Positions 16,713 through 27,636 of a DNA stretch of 64,000 nucleotides are shown here, in pieces. The notes beneath the pieces were generated by a model. It had not been told where the DNA came from. It was given only the letters and a program-made list of their open reading frames with translations, and did no database searches. Source of the stretch: Methanomassiliicoccales archaeon (GTDB taxonomy: Archaea > Thermoplasmatota > Thermoplasmata > Methanomassiliicoccales > UBA472); NCBI GenBank assembly GCA_035506675.1, contig DATJOX010000041.1:36475-100474 (forward strand), given 5' to 3'. How positions within the stretch are numbered: the first letter of the stretch is position 1; each line of letters opens with the position of its first letter. Position numbers and translations under genes: made by a program.

Positions 16713-16819
16713 TGCCGGGGACGGGGTTCGAACCCGTGACCTTCGGATCTCCCTGGATGGGGTCTGGTTAGACTGAATCCCTATGAGTCCGACGCTCCAC
16801 CAGGCTGAGCCACCCCGGC
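16713..16819 (-). tRNA. tRNA-Met (CAU) elongator type, or tRNA-Ile2, with 33-nt intron
   Basis: Minus strand: GCCGGGG-UG-GCUC..GAGC-G-UCGGA-CU-CAU-A[intron]A-UCCGA-AGGUC-ACGGG-UUCGAAC-CCCGU-CCCCGGC-A. G1:C72 excludes an initiator. Confidence 0.88.
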
Positions 16820-24388: not shown

Positions 24389-25150
24389 TTGGCGAGCGAG
24401 ATGAAGCTTCACGAGTACAAGCAGCTCAGCTTCAAGAAGCCAATGGTCATCGTCGGGTTCCCGAGCGCAGGTTTGGTGAGCTCGATCGCCGCGAACTTCG
24501 TCGTGCGCACGCTCAAGCTCGAGAAGATAGCAACGATCCTCCATCCGGAGTTCCCGCCCTACGCGCTCGTGCACGAAGGCGAGATCTCGCCGCCGGTACG
24601 CATCTATGCAGGGAGCAGGGTGTGCGACGGCACCGGTGAGGAGTGCGAGCAGCTCATCGTCATCACGACCGAGTTCATGCCCGCGCCCCACCTACTCCGC
24701 CCTCTGAGCGACGCCATTGTCGAGTACTGCCGTCGGAACGATGTCAACACCATCGTCGCCCTCGAAGGCATGAACGTGGGCGAGAGCCCGGAGAAGCGCG
24801 AGGTGCTCGCCATCGCCACTGGTGAGAGGTGCCGGCGCATGCTCGAGAAGTACGGAATGAAGGAGCTCAAGGAGGGAATGGTGAGCGGGATCTCGGGCGT
24901 TCTTCTCTACGATGCCGATCGCTTGGGCTTGGACCTGATATGCCTGCTCGGACCGGCGCGCATGGACTATCCGGACGCGAGAGGAGCAGCGCGCCTCATC
25001 GAGAACGTCGCGAAGATGCTGCCGGAGCTGAAGTTGGACCCGGAGCCGCTGTTTAAGGAAGCGGAGCAGATCGAGAAGGACATGCGCGCGGCGGTGGAGG
25101 GGCTGCGCCAGGCGCAAAGGCCTTCGGAAGAGTCGGTCATCTACAGCTAG
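24389..25150 (+). CDS. PAC2 family proteasome-assembly-chaperone-like protein
   Basis: KKPMVIVGFPSAGLVSSIAANFVVRTLKLEKIATILHPEFPP is the typical PAC2 (DUF75) N-terminus. Confidence 0.7.
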   Translation: MASEMKLHEYKQLSFKKPMVIVGFPSAGLVSSIAANFVVRTLKLEKIATILHPEFPPYALVHEGEISPPVRIYAGSRVCDGTGEECEQLIVITTEFMPAPHLLRPLSDAIVEYCRRNDVNTIVALEGMNVGESPEKREVLAIATGERCRRMLEKYGMKELKEGMVSGISGVLLYDADRLGLDLICLLGPARMDYPDARGAARLIENVAKMLPELKLDPEPLFKEAEQIEKDMRAAVEGLRQAQRPSEESVIYS

Positions 25151-25181: not shown

Positions 25182-25193
25182 ATAGTTAATTAG
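25182..25193 (+). promoter_or_regulatory. TATA-like box upstream of the GTPase gene
   Basis: atagttaattag is centred ~30 nt upstream of ATG 25218, implying a leaderless or near-leaderless mRNA. Confidence 0.4.
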
Positions 25194-25217
25194 CGCGCAC
25201 GGGGATACTTCGGGGAA

Positions 25218-25727
25218 ATGGAGCGCAAGCGGATCATCAGGAAGGTCTGTCTTCTGGGCGACGGCGGCGTCGGCAAGACCAGCCTCGTCAGGCGTTACGT
25301 CGAGGATATCTTCAACGACAAGTACATCGTCTCTTTCGGCACGAAGGTCTCGAAGAAGGTTCTGAACATCGACGACGTCGAGCTGACGCTCATGATCTGG
25401 GATGTGCTCGGGCAGAAGAGCGACGACTCGCTGCATGCCGCCTATTACAAAGGCGCGAACGGCGCGATGCTCGTGGCGGACCTCACCAGACGGGAGACGC
25501 TCGAGCACCTGACGAAATGGCGGAGCGATTTCCTGAACGTCGAGAAGAGCGCAAAGACGATCATCGTGGGCAACAAGGCCGATCTGGAGATGGCCGTGAC
25601 CCCCTCGGACCTCGCCGCGCTGTCGAAGGCGCTCGGATCGCCGCTGCAAAGGACCTCGGCGAAGACCGGGGAAGGCGTGGAGCGAGCCTTCGAGCAGCTC
25701 GGCCAGAAACTGCTAGAGAGTGGTTGA
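25218..25727 (+). CDS. Ras-superfamily (Rab/Ras-like) small GTPase
   Basis: G1 GDGGVGKT, G2 candidate Thr in SFGTKV, G3 WDVLGQ, G4 GNKADL, G5 TSAKTG. No C-terminal Cys lipidation motif. Confidence 0.85.
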   Translation: MERKRIIRKVCLLGDGGVGKTSLVRRYVEDIFNDKYIVSFGTKVSKKVLNIDDVELTLMIWDVLGQKSDDSLHAAYYKGANGAMLVADLTRRETLEHLTKWRSDFLNVEKSAKTIIVGNKADLEMAVTPSDLAALSKALGSPLQRTSAKTGEGVERAFEQLGQKLLESG

Positions 25728-26673
25728 CGTGACGCACTACAACCCATTCTTCGTCATGCCCGGTTCGGCGCTCGTAGACCTGCGCGAGGAGCTAGAGCTC
25801 ATAGAGGACAAGGAAGCGGGGGAGACGCTCGCGCGCTATGGATATCGCGCTGGCGTCGGCCTTATCAGCGTCCTCGACCTGCGCGTCAAAGACATCCAGG
25901 AGCTCAAGGAAGTGCTTCCCCAGATCTGGTCGGAGACCGGGCTGAGCCGCATCAATGTGCGATCCGCGAATGAGGACGAGATCATCGTCGAGGCGGAGGA
26001 ATCGCTCGAGGCGTTGCACGGCCGGACCTGCGATTTCGCGCGCGGCTATCTGTCCGGCATCATCTCTTCGCTTCTCGACCGGCGCTATGTTGCGATCGAA
26101 AGGGAGTGTCTCTCGAAGGGCAAGCACGGCTGCGTTCACGTCCTCACGCCCGCCGGGGAGGAGACGCCCAAGGAAGCATCTGGAAAGAAGCAGCCGGTGA
26201 GCTACGAACTCGAGGCGGGGTACTCGTACATTATCGAGTCCGAGGACCCGTACGCGGGTTTCGAGATGTTCTCCGAGCTCGTGACGCACGGCTACAAGGG
26301 GATGAGCATCGTGCGCGAGTATCCCGAGAAGCTGCGTGAGCGATACGCGCTCGCCGACTCGCCGATGCTGTGGTTGTCCTATGATAGAGATGTGAAATAC
26401 GCGCGCGAGCCGACCAACGTCCCTCTGATCTACTCGGAGGTCAAAGCGTTCCTTGACAACGCGACGGACGGCGTCGTCCTCATCTCCGGCATCGAGTACC
26501 TCATCAGCCAGAGCACGTTCCTTAAGGTGCTGAAGTTCCTGCAGCTGCTCAACGAGAACGTGGCGGTGAAGGACGCCGTGCTCCTCGTCCCGGTCAGCCC
26601 GCAAGCACTGAGCACCCGCGAAGTCAAGCTCCTGGAGCGGGAGATGCGCGTGCTCCAACCATCGAAACCGTAA
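25720..26673 (+). CDS. V4R domain + DUF835-like domain protein
   Basis: The N-terminal half is V4R-like: ARYGYRAGVG...CDFARGYLSGIISSLL...ERECLSKGKHGCVHVL. The C-terminal half is DUF835-like: GYSYIIESEDP...GMSIVREYPEKLRERY...PMLWLS...VVLISGIEYLISQSTFLKVLKFLQLL. GTG 25720 overlaps the GTPase stop by 8 nt; alternative starts are 25729 and 25756. Confidence 0.65.
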   Translation: MVDVTHYNPFFVMPGSALVDLREELELIEDKEAGETLARYGYRAGVGLISVLDLRVKDIQELKEVLPQIWSETGLSRINVRSANEDEIIVEAEESLEALHGRTCDFARGYLSGIISSLLDRRYVAIERECLSKGKHGCVHVLTPAGEETPKEASGKKQPVSYELEAGYSYIIESEDPYAGFEMFSELVTHGYKGMSIVREYPEKLRERYALADSPMLWLSYDRDVKYAREPTNVPLIYSEVKAFLDNATDGVVLISGIEYLISQSTFLKVLKFLQLLNENVAVKDAVLLVPVSPQALSTREVKLLEREMRVLQPSKP

Positions 26674-26722: not shown

Positions 26723-27193
26723 ATGAACCTGGTGCCCAAGAAGTTCTTCATTACTTCTGGCTGCGCGGTGAGCAAGGTCTCCGATCTGAACGCCTTCGAC
26801 GAAGCATTGAAAATGGCGAGGATCGGAGAGCAGAACCTGGTCTCCGTTTCCTCTGTACTGCCTATAGGCGCCAAGCAGGTGCCGGTGCGCGAGATGCCGA
26901 TGGGCTCGGTAACCTTCTGCGTTCTCGCTCAGATGCGAGGGGGCGAGGGCGAGATGATCTCCGCGGGCATCGCCTATGCGTTCCGCAAGGACGGCAAAGG
27001 CGGGTACGTGGCGGAAGGACACATGCATGGCACCAAGAAGGCTCTCAAAGAAGTCCTCGAATGGAAGATGAGCGAGATGGCGAAGCTCCGTCAGATCGAG
27101 CTGCGCACCATCCACTACGCCATCGAAGAGCTCTCGGTCCCAATGGACCACTACGGCGCCTGCATCGGTTCCTGCGTTTTCGTCGAGTATTGA
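26723..27193 (+). CDS. pdaD: pyruvoyl-dependent arginine decarboxylase
   Basis: VPKKFFITSGCAVSKVSDLNAFDEALKMARIGEQNLVSVSSVLP contains the self-cleaving Ser-Ser site region typical of PdaD. Confidence 0.85.
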   Translation: MNLVPKKFFITSGCAVSKVSDLNAFDEALKMARIGEQNLVSVSSVLPIGAKQVPVREMPMGSVTFCVLAQMRGGEGEMISAGIAYAFRKDGKGGYVAEGHMHGTKKALKEVLEWKMSEMAKLRQIELRTIHYAIEELSVPMDHYGACIGSCVFVEY

Positions 27194-27636
27194 TGTTCGG
27201 CGTCGTCGTCTGTCCCAAGTGCAACCGCGCGCGCGGCGTGAAGCTAGGTTCGGCGCGAGCGAAGTGCAACTACTGTGGGCATTCGATCGACCTGTCGAAG
27301 GCGAGGATCTTCTACAAAGCGGAAACGGAAGCGCAGCTTGCCGAGGGCGTCAAGCGGATGATGGAGCTGATCGCGACGCAAGGATTGGACGCTGACGCCG
27401 AGATCGCGCGCAAGCGCAAGGTCCCGACCGTCGATCGGAAACCGTCGAAGAAGGCCGTCAAGGACCCGCTCAAAGCGGCCGCACAGCTCACCGCCCTCCA
27501 CGGAACATTCGATCTGGGTTCGTTCCGCGAGACCCTCGGTATCTCATCTGACGAAGAGGCGACGAGCGTCATCGAGAAACTTCTCGGCGAAGGCGAGCTC
27601 CTCGAACCTCGGCCAGGCATCTACCGAGTCCCCTGA
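27193..27636 (+). CDS. zinc-ribbon protein (DUF1922-like)
   Basis: MFGVVVCPKCNRARGV...AKCNYCGHSI has a CxxC...CxxC N-terminus. The ATG overlaps the pdaD stop (TGATG). Confidence 0.55.
   Translation: MFGVVVCPKCNRARGVKLGSARAKCNYCGHSIDLSKARIFYKAETEAQLAEGVKRMMELIATQGLDADAEIARKRKVPTVDRKPSKKAVKDPLKAAAQLTALHGTFDLGSFRETLGISSDEEATSVIEKLLGEGELLEPRPGIYRVP

Follow-up and report, generated by a model that had tools for sequence, protein, structure and literature searches.

What does a Ras-family small GTPase do in an archaeon, and with which protein does it work? The question is raised by a two-gene locus in DNA of a Methanomassiliicoccales archaeon (GenBank assembly GCA_035506675.1, contig DATJOX010000041.1, positions 36,475 to 100,474 of the forward strand; this whole stretch of 64,000 nt is called the window below, and its first letter is position 1). 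There, a gene for a 169-residue GTPase (25218..25727, plus strand, ATG start) runs into a gene on the same strand for a partner that combines a V4R domain with a DUF835 domain (25720..26673). Little is known of the proteins that archaeal small GTPases work with or are regulated by, and in Asgard archaea, whose GTPase genes are reported to lie mostly outside operons with candidate regulators, the matching of GTPases with guanine nucleotide exchange factors (GEFs) and GTPase-activating proteins (GAPs) is hampered (PMC10933270). We find that the assignment of the GTPase and the V4R-DUF835 protein to a functional pair is well supported by comparative sequence analysis, and we put at roughly 60% the probability that they make up a self-contained two-gene signalling operon, in which a competent Ras/Rab-type switch and its cognate cytosolic V4R-DUF835 sensor partner would bind each other.

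The evidence that carries this reading comes from other lineages. An exhaustive profile search returned 3311 relatives at E up to 1e-3, among which about 25 clusters (50% identity) have the full V4R and DUF835 architecture, the remainder being mostly DUF835 domains behind other inputs such as HisKA_7TM. GTPase linkage was found in 9 of the 11 informative V4R-DUF835 clades (including the Methanomassiliicoccales clade and a gene fusion), with flanking genes that are unrelated between clades. The GTPase lies upstream of the V4R-DUF835 gene at L074, L075/L076 and L078, and the order is reversed, V4R-DUF835 then GTPase, at L072/L073. Multi-copy clusters also occur: in an uncultured archaeon (L042, 1273-5196) a V4R-DUF835 gene, a GTPase gene, a second V4R-DUF835 gene and a V4R-only gene (V4R 60.4 bits) follow one another; in Thermoplasmatota (L063, 2832-5264, and L064, 1-3919) a GTPase, a V4R-like-DUF835 protein and a second, longer GTPase are encoded with overlapping junctions; and at L065/L066 two GTPases precede a V4R-DUF835 protein, itself followed by three genuine KaiC-type ATPases. 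The linked GTPases belong to the Ras family in all these lineages (120-145 bits) and have the signature motifs of the window protein in common. Because the linkage returns where the flanking genes are unrelated, with the two genes in either order, in clusters of several copies and within a single fused gene, we regard the two genes as a functional pair.

The linkage is also specific. Of 13 loci where DUF835 occurs without V4R (in Altiarchaeota, Methanofastidiosum and other Thermoplasmata), none has a Ras-like gene within about 6 kb, and conversely all 65 Ras-like open reading frames (ORFs) found in 790 kb of examined loci adjoin, or are fused with, a V4R-DUF835 gene, which rules out a chance association. 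The fused protein, P0304 (527 aa; L062, 8001-9584), consists of a Ras domain (residues 6-180, 64.6 bits), a V4R-like region and a DUF835 domain (104.6 bits). Its gene is an uninterrupted ORF without Ns, there is no homopolymer run at the junction, and the other frames contain stops. Such fusions are rare, since a homology search seeded with P0304 returned no second one, giving only P0304 itself and one unfused relative of 315 aa. The comparison thus shows an association that is old, that survives rearrangement, duplication and fusion, and that tracks the V4R-bearing subset of DUF835 proteins.

Some further observations were made at these loci. Another V4R-DUF835 paralogue from the metagenome-assembled genome (MAG) of L042 sits on L077. 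At L063/L064 the second GTPase is extended by about 100 aa at its C-terminus, and the opposite strand carries a Roadblock/LC7 gene and a stand-alone V4R gene no more than 2 kb away. The GTPase domain of P0304 has SAI instead of SAK, DIPGE instead of DxxGQ and some 25 inserted residues following switch I, and may, judging from these motifs, be a slow or locked switch.

A scan in which each GTDB species was represented by one genome gave 61 loci. Within Methanomassiliicoccales, the GTPase gene lies directly upstream, on the same strand, at every locus of this order that has a full-length partner (about 47 species genomes). About 25 orthologous loci have an ATGA junction, with a 4-nt overlap, about 16 have a 1-nt spacer and 2 have TGATG; the few loci that deviate are in assemblies with evident frameshifts or breaks. 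A reciprocal look-up from a divergent GTPase, P0236, found a V4R-DUF835 gene 14 nt downstream in 24 of 24 contigs. Taken alone, adjacency within the order is weak evidence, because an entire block (HycI, M16 peptidase, usually PAC2, GTPase, V4R-DUF835, PvlArgDC, Zn-ribbon protein, membrane protein) is syntenic across it. In one Methanomassiliicoccales-like MAG (L024, 3312-4491) the GTPase gene is present in two tandem copies ahead of the partner.

In the window, the coupling junction (25720..25731, plus strand) holds two alternative GTG starts around the TGA of the GTPase gene (25725-25727). The GTG at 25720 gives a protein of 317 aa and an 8-nt overlap, while that at 25729 gives 314 aa and a 1-nt spacer, and an equivalent start is in use at a group of related loci. 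Both starts are possible, as the homologues begin just ahead of a conserved NPFF(V/I)MPGSAL motif, and the predicted genes are tightly coupled under either choice. Upstream, a TATA-like element, aGTTAATTAG (25183..25192, plus strand), lies about 27-36 nt before the ATG of the GTPase, with the box TTAATTAG at about -35 to -28. In about 45 of 47 orthologous loci an A/T-rich TATA-like 8-mer begins at -32 to -36 from this ATG, in surroundings that have diverged. The archaeal TATA box is usually centred near -26/-27 from the transcription start, and with this spacing transcription is predicted to start at the ATG or a few nt before it. These features support a dedicated promoter for the pair and a leaderless or very-short-leader mRNA.

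The GTPase is a Ras-family protein by all matches (Pfam Ras 125.6 bits over residues 9-165, cutoff 21.6; Roc 93.4, Arf 46.4 and MMR_HSR1 16.5 bits; TIGR00231 66.1 bits, cutoff 42.5). It has the five G boxes GDGGVGKT (14-21), SFGTKV (39-44), WDVLGQ (61-66), NKAD (119-122) and SAK (147-149). In an alignment of 121 orthologues the G1 motif GDGxVGKTS, residues D62, G65 and Q66 of WD[IV]LGQ, the N, K and D of NKxD and the S and A of TSAK are invariant or nearly so; Q66 corresponds to Q61 of Ras. At switch-I residue 39, opposite the Mg-binding Thr of Ypt7 in the alignment, 80% of the orthologues have Ser and 20% have Thr. By these motifs the protein looks like a soluble, catalytically competent Rab/Ras-like switch. 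Its best solved relatives are Ypt7/Rab7, Sec4, Rab21 and Rab2 (about 100-105 bits), and a Thorarchaeota Rab scores 94.7 bits. By eye, YYKGA and LVADLT resemble RabF4 and RabF5, and RabF1 and RabF3 are not conserved. No lipidation motif was found in the window GTPase, which also has no long N-terminal helix, about 8 basic residues preceding strand 1, and a Cys occurs within the last 6 residues in only 2 of 120 orthologues. As the C-terminal prenylation Cys is absent and RabF1 and RabF3 are unconserved, we classify the GTPase, on its sequence features, as Rab-like by best match and not as a bona fide prenylated Rab. It is not MglA-like either. A Rab-like protein of a 'Thermoplasmatales archaeon' was previously listed, without context analysis, by Surkont and Pereira-Leal 2016 (PMC4915359).

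The partner has 242 homologues, of which 120 were listed; the majority of these 120 have both V4R and DUF835 Pfam matches. Its AlphaFold2 model, built with 20 homologues, has a mean predicted local distance difference test score (pLDDT) of 85.7 and consists of two domains joined by a low-confidence or disordered linker (residues 147-155). The N-terminal domain (25762..26157, plus strand; about residues 15-146) matches Pfam V4R (PF02830) at 29.4 bits over residues 99-144, just below the 31-bit cutoff. The call is backed by an NCBIfam match to the V4R region of MsvR, by a profile alignment with PoxR/MopR and by a fold search, and PF02830 reaches 44-47 bits in the relatives P0251 and P0255. In the fold search, made with Foldseek against the PDB from the model of the partner, the sensor domains of DmpR, MopR and PoxR come first (E 3e-8 to 1e-6), followed by the V4R protein MJ1460 (4e-5), Bet3/TRAPPC3 including the Thorarchaeota TRAPPC3 7yh3 (5e-5 to 2e-4; target-normalised template modelling (TM) score 0.62-0.71) and H-NOX (1e-4). 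The domain thus has the alpha/beta fold of the V4R/Bet3/H-NOX type. The Foldseek probability is 1.00 for MopR, PoxR, DmpR, MJ1460 and Bet3, with a root-mean-square deviation of 2.7-4.5 A over about 150 columns, in a region where the model has a pLDDT of 82-94. Pfam reports no Bet3/TRAPP family at E up to 1, and detects no DNA-binding domain in the partner.

The Cys pattern CDFARGYLSG...ERECLSKGKHGC, which runs from C104 to C138, is part of a putative Zn site of the MopR/PoxR type. In the profile-to-PDB alignment C104, E127, C130 and C138 fall on the C...E-x-x-C...C pattern of PoxR and MopR, whose matching residues bind Zn in these structures, and this pattern is kept in 114 of 120 partner homologues. 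The C-terminal half (26200..26670, plus strand; about residues 161-317) is a DUF835 domain, with a KaiC/RecA-like fold that lacks a Walker A motif. Pfam DUF835 (PF05763) matches residues 181-309 at 98.4 bits (cutoff 33.1; profile positions 9-136 of 136), and Foldseek matches of this domain (3e-5 to 2e-4 overall) include FlaH/ArlH (3e-5), KaiC (3e-5), PH0284/PH0250 (about 1e-4) and Rad51. The Walker A pattern GxxxxGK[ST] is present in none of the 120 partner homologues, while the genuine KaiC genes near the modules at L065 and L070 do have it. DUF835 has been described as an inactivated KaiC ('iKaiC'), the output domain of archaeal REC-DUF835 response regulators (Galperin et al. 2018, PMC5847659).

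Most of what an earlier note had read from the DNA of this locus is borne out. The ORFs and all the motif strings that it quoted are there, including the five G boxes, and the translational coupling that it proposed is found as overlapping or 1-nt junctions conserved among relatives. Its TATA-like box keeps its position across the orthologous loci, and the operon indeed has no Roadblock partner, as it had stated. The V4R assignment holds through fold, Zn-ligand pattern and MsvR match, with a Pfam score that falls short of the cutoff, and the P-loop-less RecA/KaiC-like nature of DUF835 is confirmed by structure comparison and by the published description. The note had also proposed that the two genes work together and had named conservation of the gene pair beforehand as one of its tests; the pair is conserved in the about 47 species of the order, in other clades and as a fusion.

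How could the pair work? In the two-gene signalling operon that we favour, the GTPase and the V4R-DUF835 partner would bind each other, the V4R domain being a Zn-stabilised sensor of a small ligand or of redox state. The V4R half would communicate with the GTPase, either by setting its nucleotide state, as GEF or GAP, upon a hydrophobic or redox cue, or by reading this state out, and the DUF835 half would relay the signal, as it apparently does behind REC, PAS and 7TM inputs, possibly to genuine KaiC-type ATPases. Since only V4R-type DUF835 proteins come with a GTPase, V4R is the likelier GTPase-facing half and DUF835 would be a generic transmitter. The KaiC ATPase clusters at L065 and L070, in two clades, hint at a contact between DUF835 and KaiC hexamers. 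What V4R senses could be hydrophobic, as with the ligands of MopR and PoxR, or it could be redox state, by analogy with the V4R cysteines of MsvR, a redox-sensitive regulator of methanogens (PMC3729527). That the two proteins bind, which domain makes the contact, in which direction regulation runs, what the ligand is and what lies downstream are the parts of this proposal that we infer. In its most specific form, it would have the V4R domain directly bind the Rab-like GTPase and regulate its nucleotide state, giving a ligand-gated two-protein switch in Thermoplasmatota that is wired into a KaiC-type network through the pseudo-KaiC; taken with all these details, this is improbable.

Two kinds of neighbours may be mentioned beside this proposal. 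KaiC-type ATPase genes (PF06745, Walker A present) lie at L065 (6896-11068), with GTPases, and at L070 (4154-4891 and 7768-9835), without GTPases. A gene of the UbiA prenyltransferase family abuts the module in two unrelated loci: at L062 (6195-7898) it is upstream of the fusion gene, and at L078 (1123-2055) its start coincides with the final base of the V4R-DUF835 gene. The presence of a prenyltransferase gene so close by could point to V4R binding a lipid or prenyl compound.

Several observations weigh against the signalling operon as pictured above. Two V4R-DUF835 clades lack an adjacent GTPase, one at L067 and the other at L070/L071, where KaiC-type ATPases are on the flanks, so that the partner can exist alone. 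The fusion is known from one MAG only, as a singleton, and it has Glu in place of the Gln in its G3 motif (DIPGE). The Cys/Zn site is lost in several GTPase-linked clades (P0267, P0301, P0304), and because these clades have no Cys cluster, Zn or redox sensing is not the universal input. By inspection of the sequences, no Arg of the partner is conserved in all clades, nor is any other residue that might serve as a catalytic finger. Association with KaiC ATPases is seen in 2 clades only, and a low-sensitivity search found neither a KaiC nor a second V4R gene in the window. Finally, the mirror-tree comparison gives a partial r of 0.49 for the GTPase and its partner, against 0.54 for M16 and HycI; the top partial correlation of the GTPase is with its partner, but unrelated neighbour pairs reach 0.40-0.54, and the comparison is not discriminating.

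This last result and the synteny of the whole gene block across the order can be cited for the view that the two genes are mere neighbours, kept side by side by inherited Methanomassiliicoccales synteny without any functional link. Such an explanation is highly improbable and effectively refuted by the cross-lineage data: in other lineages the pair stands among unrelated flanking genes, with either gene first, is multiplied in clusters and is once fused, its junctions overlap by 1-8 nt, and no Ras-like gene is found elsewhere in 790 kb of flanks. A more attractive alternative is that the partner V4R domain, of Bet3 fold and probably dimeric, is the exchange factor for the GTPase, a prokaryotic forerunner of the relationship between Bet3 and Rab in TRAPP (Bet3/TRAPPC3 on Ypt1/Rab1). 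A V4R/Bet3 fold is here genetically tied to a Rab-like GTPase, the N-terminal domain superposes measurably on Bet3/TRAPPC3, the best solved relatives of the GTPase are Rabs (Ypt7, Sec4, Rab7), its linkage follows the V4R-bearing DUF835 proteins and not DUF835 alone, and V4R has been proposed as the likely ancestor of Bet3 (PMC2253512). However, MopR, PoxR and DmpR are better matches in both structure (E about 1e-7) and sequence, and the bacterial-type Zn site is kept, which places the domain nearer to ligand sensors; the partner also carries a pseudo-KaiC fusion that TRAPP lacks. Moreover, the exchange site of TRAPP for Ypt1 is formed mainly by the longin subunits Bet5 and Trs23 together with the C-terminal tail of Bet3, and no longin gene is present in the operon or among its neighbours. 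On the predicted structure, the TRAPP resemblance is real at the fold level, with Bet3 not being the closest relative of the V4R domain, and the candidate GEF role that the earlier note had drawn from TRAPP is not sustained by these comparisons; we consider it quite unlikely.

The partner could instead be a GAP or an effector: the GTP-bound GTPase would bind V4R-DUF835 and alter the action of DUF835, for example its association with KaiC hexamers, or the partner would switch the GTPase off, like MglB. Ras-family switches with a catalytic Gln but no built-in Arg finger typically need a GAP, and the GTPase has its Gln intact and no obvious finger of its own. DUF835 is a C-terminal output-type domain in other architectures, and genuine KaiC ATPases cluster with the module at L065 and L070. 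Against this stand the lack of a conserved Arg or Asn finger candidate across clades and the anecdotal character of the KaiC co-location, and a role of this kind appears unlikely to us. That the locus could be an ArvABC vesiculation module or an MglA/MglB-type polarity module under another annotation is barely credible. ArvA of Haloferax volcanii is also an archaeal small GTPase, with conserved partners directly downstream in a widely inherited operon of many Euryarchaeota (PMC10927574), and there, as here, a Zn-ribbon gene is found further on. Yet its partners are DUF2073 (ArvB, SepF-like) and DUF2072 (ArvC) proteins, both absent here, and ArvA itself is annotated as MMR_HSR1 (PF01926), is closest to Arf in Pfam and has an N-terminal amphipathic helix (PMC10927574), whereas the window protein is a Ras-family GTPase with only about 8 basic residues before strand 1; the Zn-ribbon protein two genes downstream of the GTPase has the relative position of ArvC but belongs to another Pfam family. 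MglA/MglB and the actinobacterial conservons likewise associate a prokaryotic small GTPase with a dedicated non-GTPase partner in a conserved, occasionally fused operon, and a Roadblock gene lies near the related locus L064. Their partner, however, is a Roadblock/LC7 protein and not V4R-DUF835, no Roadblock/MglB gene is present in our operon or was seen in the window by a single-query phmmer search of low sensitivity, and the G3 motif is the canonical WDVLGQ (DxxGQ), Asp included, which with NKxD is not of MglA type. No V4R or KaiC-type neighbour was reported for MglA or Rup GTPases by Wuichet and Sogaard-Andersen 2014 (PMC4316618).

The two-gene signalling operon thus resembles several systems in part. 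With the phenol-sensing NtrC-type regulators MopR, PoxR and DmpR it shares the fold and the C...E-x-x-C...C pattern, and with MsvR the NCBIfam match, but in those proteins V4R is joined to AAA+ and helix-turn-helix (HTH) or to HTH domains and controls transcription, whereas here it is joined to a DUF835 pseudo-ATPase and coupled to a GTPase. With the DUF835 response-regulator outputs and the KaiC-like hubs it shares a C-terminal DUF835 without P-loop behind an input module (PMC5847659); V4R takes the place of REC, PAS or 7TM as the input, and DUF835-only proteins lack the tie to a small GTPase. In the Asgard archaeon MK-D1, GTPase genes are reported to share operons with Roadblock, longin or TRAPPC3 genes only exceptionally (Tran et al. 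2024, PMC10933270), while coupling is strict in the present case.

The genomic context of the pair consists of housekeeping genes: HycI-like protease, M16 peptidase and PAC2 genes precede it, and PvlArgDC, Zn-ribbon protein and membrane protein genes follow. Its composition is that of the window (about 60% G+C), and the nearest database proteins, at 98% identity, are from Methanomassiliicoccales MAGs. The PAC2-family (proteasome assembly chaperone-like) gene directly 5' of the pair (24389-25150, plus strand) is missing at L004, L020, L032, L039 and L080-L085, where the other synteny is kept. As several related loci drop it in this way, PAC2 lies outside the module. The Zn-ribbon gene (27193-27636, plus strand) has DUF5817 and DUF1922 matches, both below cutoff; its start codon, ATG, shares bases with the stop codon of the preceding gene for pyruvoyl arginine decarboxylase (PvlArgDC), and it is syntenic across Methanomassiliicoccales loci. 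Elsewhere in the window, a 107-nt Rfam tRNA match on the minus strand (16713-16819, 57.6 bits) that is absent from the ARAGORN list is probably an intron-containing archaeal tRNA. An anti-phage defence function for the pair was considered and rejected: neither protein matches a PADLOC family at E up to 0.01.

The three domains are individually known, and the proteins bear the NCBI names 'Rab family GTPase' and 'DUF835 domain-containing protein'. We found no description of a conserved GTPase/V4R-DUF835 module in the literature covered, outside of which lies Makarova et al. 2017 (mBio, KaiC-like hubs), and within that coverage the earlier note's remark that no functional description was known still stands. 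What the locus offers is a Rab-like GTPase strictly coupled to one defined partner, whose V4R fold is thought to be ancestral to Bet3 of TRAPP. A pre-eukaryotic connection between the Bet3 fold and Rab proteins becomes testable with two small soluble proteins, and for DUF835, the 'inactivated KaiC' domain of which archaeal signalling proteins contain many, the pair would be a first functional entry point. Should the partner form only an ordinary sensor-switch with the GTPase, without TRAPP-like activity, it would still be a new partner class for prokaryotic small GTPases. If the V4R domain does regulate the GTPase, the functional relationship between the Bet3 fold and Rab in TRAPP would predate eukaryotes.

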